In this document: piece by piece, positions 1-8,502 of the stretch
How positions within the stretch are numbered: the first letter of the stretch is position 1
Layout of the letters: each line of letters starts with the position of its first letter
Virus record (IMG/VR): IMGVR_UViG_2609459840_000006
Strand: one strand, 5' to 3'
DNA from: a virus
Lineage: Duplodnaviria > Heunggongvirae > Uroviricota > Caudoviricetes
Length of the DNA: 8,504 bases
Translations under genes and position numbers: made by a program
Notes under the pieces: generated by a model
The model's database searches: none
What the model was told of the DNA's origin: nothing
What the model saw: only the letters and a program-made list of their open reading frames with translations

Positions 1-146
1 CTTACACCGCTTCTCAACCCGGTACGCACCAGAAAATCATTGATATGGCCATGAATGGCGTTGGATGCCGGGCAACTGCCCGCATTATGGGCGTTGGCCT
101 CAACACGATTTTACGTCACTTAAAAAACTCAGGCCGCAGTCGGTAA
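1..146 (+). CDS. insA: IS1 InsA, C-terminal part (5'-partial; frame starts at nt 3)
   Basis: Frame 3 reads [47 protein letters not shown] then TAA at 144-146, matching the InsA C-terminus as I recall it. Confidence 0.85.
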
Positions 147-568
147 CCTCGCGCATACAGCCGGGCAGTGACGTCATCGTCTGCGCGGAAATGGACGAAC
201 AGTGGGGCTATGTCGGGGCTAAATCGCGCCAGCGCTGGCTGTTTTACGCGTATGACAGTCTCCGGAAGACGGTTGTTGCGCACGTATTCGGTGAACGCAC
301 TATGGCGACGCTGGGGCGTCTTATGAGCCTGCTGTCACCCTTTGACGTGGTGATATGGATGACGGATGGCTGGCCGCTGTATGAATTCCGCCTGAAGGGA
401 AAGCTGCACGTAATCAGCAAGCGATATACGCAGCGAATTGAGCGGCATAACCTGAATCTGAGGCAGCACCTGGCACGGCTGGGACGGAAGTCGCTGTCGT
501 TCTCAAAATCGGTGGAGCTGCATGACAAAGTCATCGGGCATTATCTGAACATAAAACACTATCAATAA
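65..568 (+). CDS. insB: IS1 InsB frame; in vivo expressed as InsAB' transposase by -1 frameshift at the A6C motif (122-128)
   Basis: 167-aa ORF in the -1 frame relative to insA. The slippery run ttaaaaaac at 120-128 sits in the insA/insB overlap, and the stop at 566-568 lies inside the right IR. Confidence 0.85.
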
Positions 569-583
569 GTTGGAGTCATTACC
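561..583. repeat. IS1 right terminal inverted repeat (23 bp)
   Basis: atcaataagttggagtcattacc is the reverse complement of the canonical IS1 end ggtaatgactccaacttattgat. Confidence 0.75.
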
Positions 584-589
584 AAAGTT

Positions 590-625
590 ATTAAAAATGG
601 GGCGTTGAAACGCCCCCAAAAATAA
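590..625 (-). terminator. Rho-independent terminator, probably for the porin transcript
   Basis: GC stem ggggcg/cgcccc (599-604 / 611-616) with loop ttgaaa; on the minus strand it is followed by a U-run (atttttaa). It lies 14 bp from the IS1 end. Confidence 0.5.
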
Positions 626-654
626 AGGGTAATATATAACAGAAGGTTTGTATA

Positions 655-740
655 GTTAGAAGCAAGGTTGTGCTTCTAAAGGAAGTGGCTTGAGGGAGCC
701 ACTTATATGTTGGGGAGGCAAAGCCTCCCACAACATATCT
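655..740. other. Three consecutive stem-loops in the porin 3' region
   Basis: agaagca-aggttg-tgcttct (659-678); gtggct-tgaggg-agccac (685-702); and a long hairpin atatgttggggaggc-aaa-gcctcccacaacatat (705-738, about 15 bp stem with one bulge), followed on the plus strand by cttttag. Confidence 0.4.
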
Positions 741-753
741 TTTAGTAATCAAA

Positions 754-1836
754 TTAGAACTGGTAAACCATACCTACAGCAACGATATCATCGGTAGCAA
801 CGCCAGATGCTTTCGTGAAATCGCTCTTATCAATCAGGTTGATTTTGTAGTCAACAAAAGTGGACATATTTTTGTTGAAGTAATAGGTTGCACCTACATC
901 AACATATTCAACCAGGTCCTGATCACCCCAAACACCCAAGTCTTTTCCTTTAGAATGCAGGTAAGCAACGGATGGACGCAGGCCGAAGTCGAACTGATAT
1001 TGTGCAACAGCTTCGAAGTTTTGTGCTTTGTTGGCAATATGGTTATTACCAAAAACAGTCATGTTCTGGGTTTCAGAATAGGTGGTGGCCAGATAGATGT
1101 TGTTCGCATCATATTTCAGACCAGCTGCCCATACTTCAGCATTTTGACCAGAAGCATTCAGACCGTTGTTACCGTAGATAACCTGATTATTAGTGCGATC
1201 AGATTTAGCATAGGTTGCACCCACGCCGAATCCTTCATACTCATAAGTAGTTGAGAAACCGAAACCATCGCCATTAGCTTCAGTTACTTCATTTCGGTCA
1301 TTTTTGCCCTGATACTGAGCTGCAAAGTTCAGGCCATCAACCAGACCAAAGAAGTCGTTGTTACGATAAGTTGCAACACCTGTGGTGCGACCAGTCATGA
1401 ATACATCTGTTTGGGTCCAGGTATCGCCACCGAATTCTGGCAGAACGTCAGTCCACGCACCGATGTCGTATGCTACACCGTAGTTACGGCCGTAATCGAT
1501 TGAGCCGTAGTCACCGAATTTCAGGCCTGCAAATGCAAGACGGGTTTTGTCTTTGGAGGAACCTTGAGATTCAGCGCGGTTGCCTTTGAATTCATATTCC
1601 CACTGACCGAAACCAGTCAGTTGATCGTTGATTTGGGTTTCACCTTTGAAGCCAAGACGGGCATAAGTAGTATCACCATCATCTGCATCATTAGAGGAGA
1701 AGTAGTGCTTAGCATTAACTTTCCCGTACAGATCCAGCTTGTTACTGTCTTTATTATAAATTTCAGCTGCCTGAGCAGACATCGCCATCAGTACTGATGC
1801 AGCTACAGCAGAAATTGCCACTGTTAATTTTTTCAT
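754..1836 (-). CDS. nmpC: Outer-membrane general porin, NmpC / phage Lc type (OmpC/OmpF/PhoE family), 360 aa
   Basis: N-terminal signal peptide [23 protein letters not shown]|AEIYNK, porin motifs throughout and the C-terminal aromatic ..VGMVYQF. The sequence matches my memory of NmpC/Lc. ATG at 1834-1836 on the minus strand. Confidence 0.9.
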
Positions 1837-2165
1837 CGTGAGCCCTTTTTTTTGAACTATTATTAAAAAATGATGTCACTGCGCGATAAATATTCATCTA
1901 ATCAATGTGATTATTTCAAGATGTAAGTTTTAGTTTCTCATTTAATTTGTGAAGTAGATCTCTATTTTTATCTGAACTTTTTCTATCGAAACCTATTTAT
2001 GGCTCTTATTTGAACAAAAATAAACCTATTAGCTAATTTATATTAATGGCTGTTATTTATGGGGGTTCTATAATTCGGCAGTTTAATTTAAATCAACTAA
2101 AAATAACGTCTGAAATTATTTATTGGTTATTTGTTGAGGTTTTCTTATGTATTTGTGGTGGAGTT

Positions 2166-2194
2166 TTGAACACTCGGTAGCATTCTCATAAATA
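2166..2194 (+). promoter_or_regulatory. Candidate sigma70 late promoter (pR'-like) upstream of the lysis cassette
   Basis: TTGAAC (2166-2171), 17-bp spacer, TAAATA (2189-2194); resembles lambda pR' (TTGACT-17-TAAATT) as I recall it. A weak hairpin plus T-runs at about 2259-2300 could be a tR'-like terminator. Unverified. Confidence 0.25.
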
Positions 2195-2424
2195 TCATTC
2201 AGCGGTTTACGTACGTAAAAAATTGGTTATGCTGTTAAGAGTGGTTACTTCGTCACACAGCTTAAACCCGCCGTCGAGCTGGTTTTTCCATTTTTTGAGT
2301 CTCGATATTAGCTGATAACTCAATACCTGAGTTATTCACTGACTCCGAGTCTGTTACGTTTCTGCTTTTTTGCGATACGTTGTATTCCCTCAATTTACAC
2401 CCGCTTTGTCTGCGAGGTGGGGTT

Positions 2425-2640
2425 ATGAAATCCATGGATAAGTTAACAACGGGTGTCGCCTATGGCACCTCAGCAGGTAGTGCCGGTTACTGGTTTTTAC
2501 AGCTGCTCGATAAAGTCACGCCCTCACAGTGGGCAGCAATAGGTGTGCTGGGTAGCCTGGTATTTGGCCTGCTGACGTACCTGACAAACCTTTATTTCAA
2601 GATTAAAGAAGATAAGCGCAAGGCTGCGAGAGGTGAATAA
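2425..2640 (+). CDS. S: Class II holin (pinholin), phage 21 S-type, 71 aa with dual-start motif
   Basis: [28 protein letters not shown].. with Met1-Lys2-Ser3-Met4 dual start and two TMDs, close to S21 from memory. Strong SD gaggtgg upstream of the ATG at 2425. The track's start at 2380 is a TTG extension and was rejected. Confidence 0.88.
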
Positions 2641-3137
2641 TGCCTCCATCATTACGAAAAGCCGTTGCTGCTGCTATTGGTGGCGGAGCAATTGCTATAG
2701 CATCAGTGTTAATCACTGGCCCAAGTGGTAACGATGGTCTGGAAGGTGTCAGCTACATACCATACAAAGATATTGTTGGTGTATGGACTGTATGTCACGG
2801 GCATACAGGAAAAGACATCATGCTCGGTAAAACGTATACCAAAGCAGAATGCAAAGCCCTCCTGAATAAAGACCTTGCCACGGTCGCCAGACAAATTAAC
2901 CCGTACATAAAAGTTGATATACCGGAAACAACGCGCGGCGCTCTTTACTTGTTCGTTTACAACGTGGGCGCTGGCAATTTCAGAACATCGACGCTTCTTC
3001 GCAAAATAAACCAGGGCGATATCAAAGGCGCATGTGATCAGCTACGTCGCTGGACATATGCTGGCGGTAAGCAATGGAAAGGTCTCATGACTCGTCGTGA
3101 GATTGAGCGTGAAATCTGTTTGTGGGGTCAGCAATGA
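2640..3137 (+). CDS. R: SAR endolysin (phage 21 R-type lysozyme), 165 aa
   Basis: N-terminal Gly/Ala-rich signal-anchor-release segment ([20 protein letters not shown]) and catalytic residues at E35, D44, T50 as in R21. The ATG overlaps the holin stop (TAATG). Confidence 0.9.
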
Positions 3138-3601
3138 ACAGAGTAACCGCGATTATCTCCGCTCTGGTTATCTGCATCATCGTCTGCCTGTCATGGGCTG
3201 TTAATCATTACCGTGATAATGCAATCGCCTACAAAGAACAGCGCGATAACAAGGCCAGTGAACTGGAGAAGGCGAACGCCACCATTACTGACATGCAGCA
3301 GCGCCAGCGTGATGCTGATGCACTCGATGATAAATACACGAAGGAGTTAGCTGATGCGAAAGCTGAAAATGATGCTCTTCGGCGCAAGCTTGATAATGGT
3401 GGTCGGGTGCTCGTCAAAGGAAAATGCCCTGTGCCATCCTCAGCCGAAACCTCCAGCGCCTCCGGCATGGGCAATGATGCCACCGTCGAACTCTCTCCAG
3501 TTGCTGGACGAAACGTTCTCGGTATCCGGGACGGAATTATCCGCGACCAAACAGCACTGAGAACGCTTCAGGAATACATCAGGACGCAATGCCTTCGATG
3601 A
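3134..3601 (+). CDS. Rz: Rz i-spanin (inner-membrane spanin subunit), 155 aa
   Basis: [30 protein letters not shown].. is near-identical to the lambda Rz N-terminus, with one TMD and a coiled-coil periplasmic domain. The ATG at 3134 overlaps the R stop (ATGA); the track start at 3122 is GTG. Confidence 0.88.
3354..3560 (+). CDS. Rz1: Rz1 o-spanin lipoprotein, embedded in the +1 frame of Rz, 68 aa
   Basis: [19 protein letters not shown].. has a signal peptide with lipobox (VVGC) and a Pro-rich mature part ([16 protein letters not shown]). Strong SD aaggag 7 nt upstream of the ATG. Lies entirely inside Rz. Confidence 0.8.
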
Positions 3602-3775
3602 TAGCGATAATTTTACTCATCATCCTTCACATCTGGCTCTGTAGACAGGGTGGTGCTCACTTCTGGAGTGAATCCAGATTAAACATCTCATTGCTGATGC
3701 TTGATATTGAGCATTTTGCGCGCGGTAAGGGGCTGCGTTGAGATAAGAGCCAGTCATTACAAATACCAGGATTTA

Positions 3776-3801
3776 GCCTCGCATTCGCGGGGCTTTTTAT
3801 T
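3776..3801 (+). terminator. Rho-independent terminator downstream of the lysis cassette
   Basis: gcctcgc-attc-gcggggc (7-bp stem with one G.U pair) followed by tttttatt. Confidence 0.5.
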
Positions 3802-3807
3802 GCCATT

Positions 3808-3840
3808 ACAAAAGCCACTTCCTACAGAGTGGCTTTGATA
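3808..3840 (-). terminator. Rho-independent terminator for the leftward accessory operon
   Basis: aaagccact-tcctacag-agtggcttt; on the minus strand the 3' arm runs into cttttg. Confidence 0.45.
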
Positions 3841-3882
3841 ATGGCTTATACCCTACACGGGATAACTTAACTGATATCCCTT

Positions 3883-4047
3883 TTAAAGGATAAAGGTATT
3901 CAAGCCTGACACATCATGCGCTGTATCGTCGCCGTATTCCCGTATTAACAGAGACCGTAGCCCGACGGGGAACTCCTTCTGCGCGAGTGTGTGGGAATAA
4001 TCAAAAACGATGCACACCGGGGTTACCGGGTACACATATTTCATCAT
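3883..4047 (-). CDS. Hypothetical small protein, 54 aa (absent from the ORF track, apparently because of a length cutoff)
   Basis: Hand translation: MMKYVYPVTPVCIVFDYSHTLAQKEFPVGLRSLLIREYGDDTAHDVSGLNTFIL*. It lies 45 bp downstream of the ybcV-like stop and just upstream of the minus-strand terminator. The SD is weak. Confidence 0.3.
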   Translation of the reverse strand: MMKYVYPVTPVCIVFDYSHTLAQKEFPVGLRSLLIREYGDDTAHDVSGLNTFIL

Positions 4048-4092
4048 GCCAGCGAGTCCGGTTCTGGCACGGAAGAAACCGGACGTTATGAT

Positions 4093-4503
4093 TTAGTGCG
4101 GAAATATTTGTGTAGTGTTCTGAATGTTCTCAGTAAAGAGTAATGAATTATCAAAGGTATAGTAATACCTTTTGTTTTCGTGGATATTTGTAATCCATCT
4201 GAAAACCCCTGCTGTAGCAAGATTTTTCCTGTATTCGTAAAATGATAACTCTCCTGATTTGAATCCTTTTAAGGTGGCTTCTATAAGGCATTTATTTTTT
4301 GAAAATCTTACATTTACAACCTTACCCTGTCCTTTTATTAAAACCGTATTATCGTTTTCAAGAACAAGATGAATATTCTCTGTGGCTAAATAGTAAATGT
4401 AATGTGAGACATTGTGACGTTTTAGTTCAGAATAAAACCAGTGATAGTTTAAATTATTTCGCACTTTATCGAATATTTGTTTAAAAATGGCAACCTGAGC
4501 CAT
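4093..4503 (-). CDS. ybcV: DUF1398 / YbcV-like prophage protein, 136 aa from the second ATG
   Basis: [80 protein letters not shown] resembles E. coli DLP12 YbcV as I remember it (unverified). The ATG at 4503 has SD ggaagg; the upstream ATG at 4518 has none. Markedly AT-rich. Confidence 0.75.
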
Positions 4504-4559
4504 TGTAGTACCTTCCATGTGATATGAGGGGTGTAGTCTGCACGATTATCTAAATTGCT

Positions 4560-4793
4560 TCAATCTGGTCTGATCTGTTTTCTGAGCAATTCAGTAATGT
4601 CACTCTTTTCTTTGTTTGCTTCAGGAGAAACTCTTTTTTCTGAGCACAGTCTCCGGCGGCAGGCTTCAATGACCCAGGCTGAGAAATTCCCGGACCCTTT
4701 TTGATCAAGAGCGATGTTAATTTGTTCAATCATTTGGTTAGGAAAGCGGATGTTGCGGGTTGTTGTTCTGCGGGTTCTGTTCTTCGTTGACAT
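4560..4793 (-). CDS. Ribbon-helix-helix DNA-binding protein, DUF3950 / YlcI-like, 77 aa
   Basis: Basic N-terminal arm (KNRTRRTTTR), then a beta-strand (NIRFP), helix (NQMIEQINIALDQ), KGSGN turn and helix (FSAWVIEACRRRL): the Arc/MetJ/CopG RHH pattern. Resembles DLP12 YlcI from memory. ATG at 4793. Confidence 0.7.
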   Translation of the reverse strand: MSTKNRTRRTTTRNIRFPNQMIEQINIALDQKGSGNFSAWVIEACRRRLCSEKRVSPEANKEKSDITELLRKQIRPD

Positions 4794-4992
4794 GAGGTTG
4801 TCCCGTATTCAGTGTCGCTGATTTGTATTGTCTGAAGTTGTTTTTACGTTAAGTTGATGCAGATCAATTAATACGATACCTGCGTCATAATTGATTATTT
4901 GACGTGGTTTGATGGCGTAGATGCACGTTGTGACATGCAGATGATAATTATTATCATTTTGCGGGTCCTTTCCGGCGATCCGACAGGTTACG

Positions 4993-5004
4993 GGGCGGCG
5001 ACCT
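4993..5004. other. cosN 12-nt cohesive-end sequence (gggcggcgacct)
   Basis: Exact match to the lambda cohesive end GGGCGGCGACCT, preceded by ..aggttacg, the lambda right end. Confidence 0.8.
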
Positions 5005-5101
5005 CGCGGGTTTTCGCTATTTATGAAAATTTTCCGGTTTAAGGTGTTTCCGTTCTTCTTCGTCGTAACTTAATGTTTTTATTTAAAATACCCCCTGAAA
5101 A

Positions 5102-5156
5102 GAAAGGAAACGACAGGTGCTGAAAGCGAGCTTTTTGGCCTCTGTCGTTTCCTTTC
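5102..5156. repeat. cosB R-element inverted repeat (terminase small-subunit binding sites R2/R1)
   Basis: Perfect 15-bp inverted repeat gaaaggaaacgacag (5102-5116) / ctgtcgtttcctttc (5142-5156), separated by 25 bp; a related tttccgttcttcttcg lies at about 5047-5062 (R3-like). Confidence 0.6.
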
Positions 5157-5181
5157 TCTGTTTTTGTCCGTGGAATGAACA

Positions 5182-5727
5182 ATGGAAGTCAACAAAAAGC
5201 AGCTGGCTGACATTTTCGGTGCGAGTATCCGTACCATTCAGAACTGGCAGGAACAGGGAATGCCCGTTCTGCGAGGCGGTGGCAAGGGTAATGAGGTGCT
5301 TTATGACTCTGCCGCCGTCATAAAATGGTATGCCAAAAGGGATGCTGAAATTGAGAACGAAAAGCTGCGCCGGGAGGTTGAAGAACTGCGGCAGGCCAGC
5401 GAGGCAGATCTCCAGCCAGGGACTATTGAGTACGAACGCCATCGACTTACGCGTGCGCAGGCCGACGCACAGGAACTGAAGAATGCCAGAGACTCCGCTG
5501 AAGTGGTGGAAACCGCATTCTGTACTTTCGTGTTGTCGCGGATCGCAGGTGAAATTGCCAGTATTCTCGACGGGATCCCCCTGTCGGTGCAGCGGCGTTT
5601 TCCGGAACTGGAAAACCGACATGTTGATTTCCTGAAACGGGATATCATCAAAGCCATGAACAAAGCAGCCGCGCTGGATGAACTGATACCGGGGTTGCTG
5701 AGTGAATATATCGAACAGTCAGGTTAA
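5182..5727 (+). CDS. nu1: Terminase small subunit Nu1, 181 aa
   Basis: MEVNKKQLADIFGASIRTIQNWQEQGMPVLRGGGKGNEVLYDSAAVIKWY.. is essentially identical to lambda gpNu1 from memory, with a winged-HTH N-terminus. The 3' end overlaps the A start as in lambda. Confidence 0.95.
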   Translation: MEVNKKQLADIFGASIRTIQNWQEQGMPVLRGGGKGNEVLYDSAAVIKWYAKRDAEIENEKLRREVEELRQASEADLQPGTIEYERHRLTRAQADAQELKNARDSAEVVETAFCTFVLSRIAGEIASILDGIPLSVQRRFPELENRHVDFLKRDIIKAMNKAAALDELIPGLLSEYIEQSG

Positions 5728-7168
5728 CAGGCTGCGGCATTTTGTCCGCGCCGGGCTTCGCTCACTGTTCAGGCCGGAGCCACAGACCGCCGTTGAATGG
5801 GCGGATGCTAATTACTATCTCCCGAAAGAATCCGCATACCAGGAAGGGCGCTGGGAAACACTGCCCTTTCAGCGGGCCATCATGAATGCGATGGGCAGCG
5901 ACTACATCCGCGAGGTGAATGTGGTGAAGTCTGCCCGTGTTGGTTATTCCAAAATGCTGTTGGGTGTTTATGCCTACTTCATAGAGCATAAGCAGCGCAA
6001 CACACTTATCTGGTTGCCGACGGATGGTGATGCCGAGAACTTTATGAAAACCCACGTTGAGCCGACCATCCGCGATATTCCGTTGCTGCTGGCGCTGGCT
6101 CCGTGGTATGGCAAAAAGCACCGGGATAACACGCTCACCATGAAGCGTTTTTCCAATGGTCGTGGCTTCTGGTGCCTGGGCGGTAAAGCGGCAAAAAACT
6201 ACCGTGAAAAGTCGGTGGATGTGGCGGGGTATGATGAACTTGCTGCCTTTGATGAGGATATTGAACAGGAAGGCTCTCCGACGTTCCTTGGCGACAAACG
6301 TATTGAAGGCTCGGTCTGGCCAAAGTCCATCCGTGGCTCCACCCCCAAAGTGAGAGGTACCTGCCAGATTGAGCGTGCAGCCAGTGAATCCCCGCATTTT
6401 ATGCGTTTTCATGTTGCCTGTCCGCACTGCGGGGAGGAGCAGTACCTTAAATTTGGCGATAAAGAGACGTCGTTTGGCCTCAAATGGACGCCGGATGATC
6501 CCTCCAGCGTGTTTTATCTCTGCGAACATAATGCCTGCGTCATCCGCCAGCAGGAACTGGACTTCACTGATGCCCGTTATATCTGCGAAAAGACCGGGAT
6601 CTGGACCCGTGATGGCATTCTCTGGTTTTCGTCATCCGGTGAAGAGATTGAGCCGCCGGACAGCGTGACCTTTCACATCTGGACGGCGTACAGCCCGTTC
6701 ACCACCTGGGTGCAGATTGTCAAAGACTGGATGAAAACGAAAGGGGATACGGGAAAACGTAAAACCTTCGTAAACACCACGCTCGGTGAGACGTGGGAGG
6801 CGAAAATTGGCGAACGTCCGGATGCTGAAGTGATGGCAGAGCGGAAAGAGCATTATTCAGCGCCCGTTCCTGACCGTGTGGCTTACCTGACCGCCGGTAT
6901 CGACTCCCAGCTGGATCGCTACGAAATGCGCGTATGGGGATGGGGGCCGGGTGAGGAAAGCTGGCTGATTGACCGGCAGATTATTATGGGCCGCCACGAC
7001 GATGAACAGACGCTGCTGCGTGTGGATGAGGCCATCAATAAAACCTATACCCGCCGGAATGGTGCAGAAATGTCGGTATCCCGTATCTGCTGGGATACTG
7101 GCGGGATTGATCCGACCATTGTGTATGAACGCTCGAAAAAACATGGGCTGTTCCGGGTGATCCCATAA
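5702..7168 (+). pseudogene. A: Terminase large subunit A, truncated after codon 488 by IS186
   Basis: GTG start (as in lambda); MNISNSQVNRLRHFVRAGLRSLF... is near-identical to lambda gpA through ..KKHGLFRVIP, then TAA at 7166-7168 inside the IS186 terminal repeat. Lambda gpA is 641 aa, so about 150 C-terminal residues are missing from this reading frame. Confidence 0.9.
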
Positions 7169-7186
7169 GCGCTAACTTAAGGGTTG
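7164..7186. repeat. IS186 terminal inverted repeat (gene A-proximal end)
   Basis: cataagcgctaacttaagggttg; its reverse complement is found at 8480-8502. Confidence 0.75.
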
Positions 7187-7334
7187 AACCATCTGAAGAA
7201 TGCGACGCCTCGGTGCCTCGTTAAGACGATGCCTCGCGTTCTTCAATTGCGTTTTGTAGGCTGTCAGGGATACTGTCCCACGAATGGCCACCTGTAAGCT
7301 CCAGATGACCATTTTTGTTATTCTCCACAACGAG

Positions 7335-8447
7335 TTAGTTCTTCTTTTCGGATCCGGCACTTCTGGGGGGGAAATCCAGCGATGGCTGGATTATGTCGTC
7401 AATTAAAAATGCGGCGAGTAGATTAGCAAATATCCACGCTTTCGCGAGTTCAGGTTCCTTTGCACGCAAAGCATCCAGGTGCAGCAAACTTTTGAGCCGC
7501 TTAAAAGCCAGTTCAATTTGCCATCGCAGACGGTAACAATCAGCCACTTGCTCTGCTGAATATTCATCTTCCGGTAATGATGTTAGCAATAGCACATGGC
7601 CCGCTGCTTCCAGCGTTTCCGCCTGAACTACTCGTCCTTTTCGACGATTCTCGCTGAGCAGTCGGGTTTTACTGATTAATGCTTTTTCGGGAGGAAGTGA
7701 TACGGCAATGAGACGTGCCGGAAAGGGAGCTCCGGCTTTTTTATTACCTGAATTGCCTATCATTACAGTGGTTTCACCGTTCTTACCGCAATCCAGCCCG
7801 CGCAGAAAACCCATCATGTCAAAGCGCATTCCTTCTGCAGTTAACCAGCGCAATCCTCGCCAGTGAACCCGGACGATATAATCAGCTTCTCCAAAAGCAA
7901 GTGAGCGGATACATTCGGGACGCGAACCGAATCCCCGGTCAGCAATGCGTATCTCGTCTGCCGTTTGCGCAAATCGGTCCAGCCGTTCAGCGTCTCTGCT
8001 GTCGGTTAGCTCAAAATCAGTGAACTGACAGGTATGAGGATCATATCCCATATGTAGTCGCCATTCAGCGCTGCCGCCCCCGGGCGCACTGATTGCTGTT
8101 CCATCGACAAGACGCAATCTCTTTCCGCTTGTACAACCCGTAACTGCGGCGCGTACAGCAAGTGTTTGTGCGGCAAGTATGCCAAACCAGTCGGCGGCAT
8201 TCCGCAGCCGCTTCAGGAGAGCCACGTCAGATAATGTTGCAACGTCATGGAGCTGAGCCCATGCAGTGACTTCACGTAATGACATCCCCCCGGGGCCGTA
8301 AGCCAGCCCCAGACGTAGCAGAGTTGCAGCATCACGAATTTCGCGGCGGCGGGTTAGAGCCCCGGCATTACGTGCCGAAGTATCCAGTTCTTCGGGCTTA
8401 CCAATATGGGCCAGAATTGCTGACCAGTTATCGTGAGAGTAATTCAT
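7335..8447 (-). CDS. IS186 transposase (IS4-family DDE transposase), 370 aa
   Basis: MNYSHDNWSAILAHIGKPEELDTSARNAGALTRRREIRD.. matches the IS186 transposase as I recall it. ATG at 8447; the track start at 8453 is GTG. Confidence 0.9.
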   Translation of the reverse strand: MNYSHDNWSAILAHIGKPEELDTSARNAGALTRRREIRDAATLLRLGLAYGPGGMSLREVTAWAQLHDVATLSDVALLKRLRNAADWFGILAAQTLAVRAAVTGCTSGKRLRLVDGTAISAPGGGSAEWRLHMGYDPHTCQFTDFELTDSRDAERLDRFAQTADEIRIADRGFGSRPECIRSLAFGEADYIVRVHWRGLRWLTAEGMRFDMMGFLRGLDCGKNGETTVMIGNSGNKKAGAPFPARLIAVSLPPEKALISKTRLLSENRRKGRVVQAETLEAAGHVLLLTSLPEDEYSAEQVADCYRLRWQIELAFKRLKSLLHLDALRAKEPELAKAWIFANLLAAFLIDDIIQPSLDFPPRSAGSEKKN

Positions 8448-8479
8448 CGGCACGTTAAATCATATCAGGCGTAATACCA

Positions 8480-8502
8480 CAACCCTTAAGTTAGCGCTTA
8501 TG
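8480..8502. repeat. IS186 terminal inverted repeat (transposase-proximal end)
   Basis: caacccttaagttagcgcttatg is the reverse complement of 7164-7186. Confidence 0.75.

Follow-up and report, generated by a model that had tools for sequence, protein, structure and literature searches.

Close described relatives of the locus analysed here include the cryptic prophage DLP12 of E. coli K-12 (essD-rrrD-rzpD/rzoD) and phage 434. As in the locus, both carry a porin gene on the minus strand, then S, R and Rz/Rz1, and then lambda-type cos and Nu1, and both are known examples of 21-type S and R combined with a lambda cos and terminase. Phage 21 (S21/R21/Rz21/Rz1-21), the paradigm of lysis by pinholin and SAR endolysin, has genes of the same families, so that the locus would follow its lysis strategy; the cosB, Nu1 (52% identical) and A (68%) of phage 21 have a different packaging specificity. 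DLP12, 434 and phage 21 all have the lambda-type Rz C-terminal half and Rz1. HK620 and SPN9CC are P22-like podophages with headful-type terminases and are not cos phages; in HK620 the spanin genes are paired with a lambda-type S105-like holin gene and a lambda R transglycosylase gene. Kongari et al. (2018, PMC6139136) place the o-spanins of lambda and 21 in one family and those of HK620, SPN9CC, SPN3UB and mEp460 in another, the 'HK620' family.

The window, i.e., the whole stretch of DNA that was analysed, is 8,504 nucleotides long. Its positions 2425-3601 very probably hold an intact four-gene S-R-Rz/Rz1 lysis cassette, a patchwork of known alleles, in a decayed lambdoid prophage of an E. coli-type chromosome. 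Compared with lambda and phage 21, the region is a mosaic that has a sharp joint within the spanin genes. This mosaic is real but already known, and the cassette is an ordinary one for lambdoid prophages. All four lysis gene products score far above their Pfam cutoffs and match PHROG lysis families. The features of the window are as follows.

1-583, plus strand: partial IS1, within which the window begins; InsB ORF at 65-568.
754-1836, minus strand: intact, phage-borne porin gene of the Lc/NmpC type (Pfam Porin_1, 507 bits).
2425-2640, plus strand: S, class II holin of the S21 pinholin family, 71 aa (PF04971).
2640-3137, plus strand: R, SAR endolysin, a GH24 true lysozyme of the R21/RrrD type, 165 aa (PF00959).
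3134-3601, plus strand: Rz, i-spanin of 155 aa with an N-terminal TMD (PF03245, 102 bits).
3329-3378, plus strand: conserved island that takes in the Shine-Dalgarno sequence, the ATG and the first 8 codons of Rz1, with the joint at its 3' edge (3378/3379).
3354-3560, plus strand: Rz1, o-spanin lipoprotein of 68 aa in the +1 frame of Rz (PF06085, 75 bits).
3589-3741, plus strand: hydrophobic ORF of 50 aa overlapping the Rz stop codon (PHROG 11822, E = 2e-36, a family of unknown function).
4093-4518, minus strand: DUF1398 (YbcV-like) gene (PF07166, 147 bits), about 82% identical in nucleotides to its lambda counterpart.
4560-4793, minus strand: DUF3950 (YlcI/YnfO-like) gene (PF13132, 75 bits).
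4963-5158, plus strand: lambda-type cos, with cosQ at about 4963-4969, cosN at 4993-5004 and cosB (R3, I1, R2, R1) at about 5042-5158.
5182-5727, plus strand: Nu1, terminase small subunit (PF07471, 332 bits).
5702-7164, plus strand: gene A, for the large subunit of terminase, cut short after about codon 488 of 641.
7165-8502, minus strand: complete IS186/IS421-like insertion sequence of 1338 bp; 372-aa transposase ORF at 7335-8453, minus strand.

The S product matches the Pfam family 'Bacteriophage P21 holin S' with 121 bits against a cutoff of 26. It begins M1-K2-S3-M4, a start identical to that of phage 21, with one ATG at 2425 and a second at 2434, and the ribosome-binding site GAGGTGGGG can be read directly upstream. 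Use of both starts would be predicted to give an S71 antiholin from ATG 2425 and an S68 holin from ATG 2434, the Lys at codon 2 providing the longer form with the extra N-terminal positive charge expected of an antiholin. Kyte-Doolittle hydropathy exceeds 1.2 solely at residues ~33-58, and Gly, Ala and Ser are frequent among residues 10-27; this profile suggests two TMDs, a weakly hydrophobic, SAR-like TMD1 and a strongly hydrophobic TMD2. The protein is identical at 71/71 residues to 434 S and DLP12 EssD and at 61/71 (86%) to S21, and the DNA is about 72-86% identical to phage 21 over 2401-2650. Judged by these identities, S is the 434/DLP12 allele. The 434 GenBank record is not an independent case of the S 5' end: it represents isolate '434B', annotated as a recombinant with DLP12, in which Q-nmpC::IS5 and the first ~41 nt of S come from DLP12 and the remaining S, R and Rz are its own.

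The R product matches the phage lysozyme domain PF00959 with 150 bits and, over its full length, the structures 4ZPU (RrrD, E = 4.5e-111) and 3HDE (E = 1.7e-110). Its residues 8-27 have the composition of a SAR domain, with 7 Ala, 4 Gly, 1 Ser and 1 Thr (13/20), and this segment is identical in R21 and RrrD. Residues E35, D44 and T50 fit the catalytic motif defined as E-X8-D-X5-T (PMC9239132). R is identical to R21, RrrD and 434 R at 163/165 residues, and its Leu104 is Ser in every homologue compared. In genomes with identical DNA, PGAP names the two genes essD and rrrD. The earlier note had described an S21-type holin with the MKSM dual start followed by a SAR endolysin with an E35/D44/T50 triad. 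The two ATGs, the SAR domain and the triad are all present as claimed; the holin belongs to the S21 family, but its closest allele is that of 434/DLP12 (100%) and not S21 itself. The S and R genes of lambda are unrelated to those of the window (no alignment), and SPN9CC has an R product that is 90% identical and another holin, 37% identical.

By homology to characterised proteins, lysis by this cassette would proceed as follows. The S21-family pinholin would build up in the inner membrane, S68 acting as holin and S71, from the upstream start, as antiholin. On triggering, the weakly hydrophobic TMD1 would exit the bilayer, leading to nanometre-scale holes and depolarisation of the membrane. Depolarisation would free the Sec-exported, membrane-tethered R, which would refold into an active lysozyme with the E35/D44/T50 triad and degrade the murein. 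Rz in the inner membrane and Rz1, an outer-membrane lipoprotein, joined through both C-termini, would then disrupt the outer membrane.

Downstream of the cassette, the packaging region is of lambda type. The cos site was analysed by alignment with the genome ends of lambda, 434 and 21, and its features were placed by reference to the records of 434 and 21. The 12-nt cohesive end GGGCGGCGACCT lies at 4993-5004, with the cos cut at 4992/4993, and the cosB R sites have the lambda form CGTTTCC, whereas those of phage 21 read GTCGG/GTCCGAC. Nu1 is identical to that of lambda at 179/181 residues, to those of DLP12 and 434 at 178-179/181 and to that of phage 21 at 94/181, identities that mark it as a protein of lambda specificity. 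The A fragment is 99% identical to lambda A (483/488), equally close to 434 A (483/488) and 68% identical to that of phage 21. Near-lambda identity resumes at 4631, within the DUF3950 gene, and over 4631-7164 the DNA is 97.4% identical to lambda and 97-98% to 434. Just upstream, lambda is more distant, aligning by blastn at only 82.4% over 3917-4576, which takes in the DUF1398 gene. Lambda has bor and ybcW, which the window lacks; DLP12 and 434 likewise have bor downstream of Rz, where the window has the 50-aa ORF. PGAP labels the porin gene OmpC; in the 434B and DLP12 records, the nmpC region aligns with it. In an Rfam scan, no family reached gathering score anywhere in the window.

The terminase is interrupted. 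Comparison with the intact gene in E. coli ES1 shows that the A reading frame runs into the insertion sequence and reaches a stop at 7168. Because A is cut after about codon 488, the nuclease domain is matched just in part: GpA_ATPase is whole, and GpA_nuclease is covered only over profile positions 2-170 of 294. The window thus lacks the complete gpA of a lambda cos packaging module, and the module is predicted to be lambda-type but non-functional. The claim that everything from cos onward is lambda-like holds for cosN, cosB, Nu1 and the A fragment, and breaks off where the insertion sequence enters gene A. That element has terminal inverted repeats CATAAGCGCTAACTTAAGGGTTG at both ends, and matching genomes annotate an IS4-like, IS421-family transposase. 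The junction between gene A and the IS186-like element had no match in 5,426 complete E. coli genomes or in GTDB species representatives. At the other end of the window, the IS1, annotated as an IS1A-family transposase in ES1, extends to 583, and homology to phage Kati and DLP12 starts at 584, 19 nt past their Q stop codon. To judge from this junction, IS1 has replaced the Q antiterminator gene and the prophage early region. With Q and the early genes taken by IS1 and A split by the IS186-like element, the prophage is defective, and annotation should mark it so, naming both events.

With Q lost and A split, the phage late-gene programme cannot activate the cassette any more, and the cassette has no role in virion release. 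If it is expressed at all, the host would have to drive it, as has been reported for DLP12. A consensus scan of 560-2450, in which a late promoter of a quuD-type Q was sought, found no sigma-70-like promoter, and pR', sought in order to place it relative to the IS1 end, is not annotated in the 434 record. For DLP12, published work (PMC7918800) reports transcription of the lysis genes, controlled by RpoE, Q and Hha, and an influence of the cassette on the production of outer-membrane vesicles. These observations bear on the idea that the cassette is a domesticated host module, kept by selection for cell-wall maintenance, biofilm or vesicles as proposed for DLP12. The intactness of all four lysis ORFs beside a lost Q, lost early genes and a broken A would fit such a role, as would S and R proteins 99-100% identical to those of DLP12. 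The same DNA, however, is 100% identical in the near-complete prophage of E. coli PSS-13, so that recent decay through two IS events explains the intact ORFs simply; with no promoter found by the scan, we consider domestication unlikely. Should the source strain express the cassette, it would be a second case, beside DLP12, of a lysis module retained in a dead prophage.

The spanin genes of this defective prophage contain a sharp joint of the mosaic. Rz has a strongly hydrophobic segment at residues ~4-24 together with the PF03245 coiled-coil family match, as expected of an i-spanin. The Rz1 gene is wholly embedded in Rz; its product has the lipobox MVVG-C19, followed by Ser at +2, and is rich in proline in its mature part. 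The periplasmic Rz Cys97 and Cys153 and mature Rz1 Cys27 are candidate positions for intermolecular disulfides, which parallel lambda Rz C99 and C152 and Rz1 C29 (PMC6139136). Relative to lambda and 21, Rz is a hybrid gene, with 245 nt of lambda/21-like sequence at the 5' end and 223 nt of HK620/SPN9CC-type sequence at the 3' end. Against lambda, identity is 94/152 overall, which splits into 70/83 (84%) for the N-terminal and 24/69 for the C-terminal part; the 5' 245 nt are 89% identical in nucleotides, and phage 21 Rz is equally close over the same part (70/83). The N-terminus is therefore not near-identical to lambda, as the earlier note had it, although the divergence claimed there for the C-terminal half and for Rz1 (48% to lambda) is clear.

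Over its full length, Rz is identical at 146/155 residues (94%) to SPN9CC and at 154/155 to Kati, compared with 61% to DLP12 and 434. Rz1 is identical at 67/68 residues to SPN9CC and Kati, at 97% to HK620 and at 48-50% to lambda, 21, 434 and DLP12 (50% to the last two). All named strong matches in the Rz1 search were HK620-family phages, with no lambda record among the matches listed (E<=1e-3), and the window Rz1 falls outside the Lambda o-spanin group, which includes phage 21. These comparisons identify the Rz C-terminal half and the mature Rz1, on sequence grounds, as the HK620/SPN9CC allele and not as members of the lambda family. HK620 matches at 95.5% over 3134-3800, which includes the downstream small ORF, and SPN9CC at 92.8% over 2639-3594. 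The 50-aa ORF travels with Rz alleles of both the HK620 and HK97 types, being common to HK620 and mEp213, and is labelled hypothetical in RefSeq and Kati. We know of no experimental study of the HK620-type spanin allele in its own right.

Maximum chi-square analysis against lambda, 21 and 434 placed the breakpoint at nt 3378, 25 nt into Rz1, where identity drops from 89% on the left to 54% on the right; the chi-square maximum was reached in 0/500 permutations, and blastn alignments to the same three phages stop at 3381. It might be argued that this contrast in Rz reflects differing selective constraint along one vertically inherited gene rather than recombination. The N-terminal TMD region is indeed 90-100% identical in nucleotides over 3134-3223 in all three Rz allele types compared, including that of mEp213, and the C-termini of spanins, which co-evolve with Rz1, are known to be variable (PMC6139136). 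Yet the fall is abrupt for constraint on a single gene, from 97% identity to lambda in the 30-nt segment that starts at 3344 to a mean of 54% past 3378. Nucleotide identity (89%) also exceeds protein identity (84%) left of 3378, so that synonymous sites are little diverged there, whereas the right-hand side is near saturation. Moreover, the same Rz 3' allele (95-98% nt) is preceded in HK620 by S and R genes unrelated to those here, and in SPN9CC by a different holin gene, and these two phages group with the window on the right-hand side only, which implies incongruent trees for 3134-3378 and 3379-3601. A purely vertical history for Rz is accordingly highly improbable.

With recombination at 3378 as the preferred reading, the embedding of Rz1 in the Rz 3' half means that the exchange carried both interacting spanin surfaces together. 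The HK620 cassette, in which lambda-type S and R precede an Rz/Rz1 that is 95.5% identical to that of the window, shows that the mobility of the spanin module does not depend on S and R; the same Rz/Rz1 thus assorts with lambda-type S/R in HK620 and with 21-type S/R here. The island at 3329-3378 is nearly invariant between lambda-type and HK620-type alleles, and it is conceivable, if rather doubtful, that it is a preferred crossover point. If so, a crossover there would swap the Rz C-terminal domain and the mature Rz1 as a unit between unrelated cassettes, and the island would be a recombination 'linker' kept up by the embedded-gene architecture. As a universal spanin crossover point, 3378 is not supported, since the mEp213/HK97-like allele diverges much earlier, at ~3224-3254, and rejoins only in the last ~36 nt. 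The earlier note had placed a joint where phage 21 lysis genes meet lambda-type spanin genes. A joint within the spanin genes does exist, at 3378, but it is not that one: phage 21 itself has a lambda-type Rz/Rz1, so that a lambda-like Rz 5' end behind S and R of 21 type marks no joint and, from the alignments, is simply the arrangement of phage 21, 434 and DLP12. The description of Rz/Rz1 as lambda-type likewise applies to the first 245 nt of Rz and fails for the Rz 3' part and Rz1, and the spanin annotation should read HK620-type, not lambda-type.

The mosaic as a whole was mapped by windowed identity, blastn segments and the maximum chi-square joint. Comparison with lambda and phage 21, which the earlier note had proposed as a way to find breakpoints, did locate them: besides the one inside Rz, there are joints at ~2640 (S allele versus phage 21), ~3601, 3917 and 4576/4631. 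S is the 434/DLP12 allele and R the 21/434/DLP12 allele; the Rz 5' end is common to lambda, 21 and 434, and, joined to it at nt 3378, the Rz 3' half, together with Rz1 and the small ORF that follows, represents the HK620/SPN9CC allele; cos, Nu1 and A are of lambda/434 type. None of lambda, 21, 434 and SPN9CC can be the single donor, as each covers only parts of the region by blastn and windowed identity. That the mosaic is an assembly chimera, with reads of different prophages joined across repeats, may be dismissed: a multicopy insertion sequence does stand at each end of the window, and E. coli genomes have a median of 2 and up to 11 places matching the cassette, but 584-7164 recurs at 99.9-100% in several independent complete genomes and colinearly in the isolated phage Kati, and the internal joints at 3378, 3601, 3917 and 4631 are not located at repeats.

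The region is thus a textbook example of lambdoid modular mosaicism, which matters little except for correct annotation. At least 10 complete E. coli genomes contain an exact copy of the cassette (100% identity), and 34 records match it at >=99%. Among the E. coli prophages, PSS-13 is 100% identical to the window over 584-7164 and ES1 99.94% over 1-7164. Escherichia phage Kati (PP925833), PSS-13 and ES1 are colinear with the window over 584-7164 and have the same alleles in every module; they differ in being without the IS186-like insertion in A, and PSS-13 and Kati keep Q. Uniform identity to a single phage across 2425-7168, which the earlier note took to speak against a mosaic, is nearly what Kati offers: it aligns in one piece over 584-7164, at 98.0% over 2300-7164. 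This uniformity is not complete, since R is slightly different in Kati (95.0% nt, 159/165 aa) as against 99.4% for Rz. Because Kati and the E. coli prophages match the entire region, the mosaic must be old and circulating. Compared with these genomes, the cassette is, to all appearances, a circulating and already sequenced phage type rather than a unique recombinant.

The window (8,504 nt) comes from a lambdoid prophage that is defective and lies in an E. coli-type chromosome. E. coli strain ES1 matches it at 99.94% identity over 1-7164. In that strain a truncated integrase gene and an IS1 precede the element, which adjoins ybhC, a gene of the lambda attB region. Gene families were assigned from Pfam and PHROG matches.

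Gene order in the window
1-583, plus strand, partial IS1
754-1836, minus strand, Lc/NmpC-type porin gene, intact
2425-2640, plus strand, S (holin)
2640-3137, plus strand, R (SAR endolysin)
3134-3601, plus strand, Rz (i-spanin)
3354-3560, plus strand, Rz1 (o-spanin), embedded in Rz
3589-3741, plus strand, 50-aa ORF
4093-4518, minus strand, DUF1398 gene
4560-4793, minus strand, DUF3950 gene
4992/4993, cos
5182-5727, plus strand, Nu1
5702-7164, plus strand, gene A, truncated
7165-8502, minus strand, IS186/IS421-like element, complete

An earlier note had described phage 21-type S and R joined to lambda-type Rz/Rz1, cos and terminase, and its coordinates and most of its sequence features were confirmed. 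S (71 aa) has the N-terminus M-K-S-M; its two ATGs, at 2425 and 2434, follow the ribosome-binding site GAGGTGGGG, in keeping with the proposed dual start. It matches the Pfam family 'Bacteriophage P21 holin S' at 121 bits, and the protein is 100% identical to 434 S and to EssD of the K-12 cryptic prophage DLP12 and 86% identical to S21; the DNA of this region is 72-86% identical to phage 21 over 2401-2650. In R, residues 8-27 form a Gly/Ala-rich N-terminal stretch (Ala, Gly, Ser or Thr at 13 of 20 positions), and Glu35, Asp44 and Thr50 fit the E-X8-D-X5-T motif as defined in PMC9239132; this composition and spacing support the SAR domain and E35/D44/T50 residues proposed for it. R is identical at 163 of 165 residues to both R21 and DLP12 RrrD, whose structures are solved (3HDE and 4ZPU). 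Codon 104 of R (2949-2951) encodes Leu in the window, as in at least ten E. coli genomes, and Ser in R21, RrrD, 434 R, SPN9CC and Kati (PP925833). Directly upstream of the S ribosome-binding site, 2351-2400 is 66% identical to 434 and Kati between flanks of 98-100%; here a short piece of the S leader region has been replaced locally.

Breakpoints were mapped by 50-nt windowed identity, blastn segments and a maximum chi-square scan.

Identity of reference phages to the window
Phage 21: S, about 76%; about 2650 through R, 94-100%; 5' part of Rz, 74-100%; after 3381, no match; cos and terminase, 58-80%
Lambda: before 3134, no match; 3134-3378, 89%; 3382-3916, no match; 3917-4576, 82%; 4631-7164, 97.4%
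SPN9CC (Salmonella P22-like phage): 2639-3594, 92.8%
HK620: 3134-3800, 95.5%

Windowed identity to lambda and phage 21 located breakpoints, but the joint between 21-type lysis genes and lambda Rz/Rz1 was not among them. Protein alignments show that lambda and phage 21 Rz and Rz1 are nearly one sequence. The passage from 21-type S and R into a lambda-like 5' part of Rz is therefore not a joint; phage 21, 434 and DLP12 are themselves arranged in this way. A joint in or near the spanin genes had also been suspected, and the maximum chi-square scan placed one within Rz at 3378/3379, 25 nt into Rz1 (chi-square 71, reached by 0 of 500 permutations). A 50-nt island that covers the Rz1 Shine-Dalgarno, ATG and first eight codons, with at most one differing position across the compared alleles, ends on its 3' side at this joint.

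Rz and Rz1 show the usual features of an embedded spanin pair, namely an N-terminal TMD in Rz and, in Rz1, a proline-rich mature part after the lipobox MVVG-Cys19, and the positions of the periplasmic cysteines parallel those of lambda (PMC6139136). Over 3134-3378, identity to lambda, 21 and 434 is 89% for DNA and 70/83 for protein, so that calling the Rz N-terminus near-identical to lambda overstated the case. Past 3378, identity falls to 54% for DNA, 24/69 for Rz protein and 48-50% for Rz1; the divergence noticed earlier in the Rz C-terminal half and Rz1 is real, and the description of the pair as lambda-type fails here. HK620, SPN9CC, SPN3UB, mEp460, Kati and other phages carry this allele of the Rz 3' half, Rz1 and the small downstream ORF; 82 phage records match at least 80% of 3382-3601, and the protein identity of Rz1 to SPN9CC, Kati and HK620 is 97-99%. 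In Kongari et al. 2018, HK620, SPN9CC, SPN3UB and mEp460 belong to an 'HK620' o-spanin family apart from the 'Lambda' family (members lambda, 21 and cdtI), with the i-spanins of both groups in a single large 'Lambda' family (PMC6139136). In HK620 this spanin type accompanies S and R of the lambda type, and in the window S and R of the 21 type, so the spanin module assorts independently. Rz and Rz1 make contact via their C-termini (PMC6139136) and Rz1 lies wholly inside the exchanged Rz 3' half; therefore, both interacting surfaces necessarily moved together.

Uneven constraint along Rz could also leave a conserved 5' part and a diverged 3' part, but recombination is the better reading. The change in identity at the joint is abrupt, and the right-hand allele is found again at 95-98% behind unrelated upstream genes. 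To the left, nucleotide identity (89%) exceeds protein identity (84%), indicating that silent sites are little diverged, and to the right divergence is near saturation. The HK97/mEp213-type allele departs as early as about 3224-3254, and similarity returns only over the final ~36 nt; since the boundary is not universal, 3378 is not supported as a general recombination hotspot.

Downstream, the cohesive-end sequence GGGCGGCGACCT begins at 4993. The cosB R sites have the lambda form, unlike the phage 21 form, and identity to lambda versus phage 21 is 179/181 versus 94/181 for Nu1 and 483/488 versus 330/487 for the A fragment. The claim that everything from cos onward is lambda-like thus holds for cosB, Nu1 and the A fragment, although gene A is truncated.

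The 50-aa ORF at 3589-3741 (plus strand) overlaps the Rz stop codon, has a hydrophobic N-terminus and matches PHROG 11822, labelled unknown function (E=2e-36). Rz alleles of the HK620 type and of the HK97/mEp213 type are both followed by this conserved ORF, which fills the position of bor in lambda, 21, 434 and DLP12; its product may be a small membrane protein, so far unrecognised, that accompanies the lysis cassette. The DUF1398 (YbcV-like) protein matches PHROG 413, labelled 'head protein', a label the Kati annotation also carries. A head function is doubtful because the gene, situated between the lysis genes and cos, is encoded on the other strand, and the label is probably a propagated misannotation. 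The Lc/NmpC-like porin gene encodes 360 aa without interruption and has a terminator hairpin of its own at 599-616, whereas its homologue in K-12 DLP12 and the 434B record is broken by IS5. That record, the GenBank 434 genome (OL657227.1), is isolate '434B', annotated as a recombinant in which Q, nmpC::IS5 and about 41 nt at the start of S come from K-12 DLP12; for that stretch it therefore gives no independent evidence.

Homology to Kati and DLP12 begins at 584, 19 nt past the stop codon of their quuD-type Q. All window DNA upstream is IS1, whose right end abuts prophage DNA at 583/584 and whose other flank in ES1 is the truncated integrase gene; the prophage has therefore lost Q and the early region, and possibly the late promoter as well. 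An almost complete relative in strain PSS-13 (100% identity over 584-7164) has both a quuD-type Q and head and tail genes resembling those of lambda. At the other end, gene A is split after about codon 488 by the IS186/IS421-like element, which measures 1338 bp, has inverted repeats CATAAGCGCTAACTTAAGGGTTG at both ends and encodes a 372-aa transposase on the minus strand; the junction at 7164/7165 had no match in 5,426 complete RefSeq E. coli genomes and GTDB species representatives. In this prophage, Q-dependent late transcription cannot drive the cassette and virion packaging is impossible. Expression, if any, would need a host promoter, as reported for the DLP12 cassette with RpoE and Hha (PMC7918800); a consensus scan upstream of the cassette found no sigma-70-like site.

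From homology to characterised proteins, we infer lysis roles for S, R, Rz and Rz1, drawing on the studies of phage 21 and lambda that PMC9239132 and PMC6139136 summarise. S68 and S71 would build up in the inner membrane until the weakly hydrophobic TMD1 exits and TMD2 oligomerises into small holes, collapsing the membrane potential. The tethered SAR endolysin would then be released and refold, forming the Glu35-Asp44-Thr50 site and cleaving murein, after which the Rz-Rz1 complex would remove the outer-membrane barrier. The work of the Young laboratory is a further basis for these roles.

The cassette has no novelty of substance. At least ten complete E. coli genomes carry it at 100% identity, and a match spanning at least 80% of it is present in 3,274 of 5,426. 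Phage 434 and DLP12 already join a pinholin of the S21 family and a SAR endolysin to cos and terminase of the lambda type. Mosaicism relative to lambda and phage 21 stands, but under the refuting condition set by the earlier note, uniform identity to a single known phage, special status is close to refuted: Kati is colinear at 98%, with a mild dip only in R (95%).
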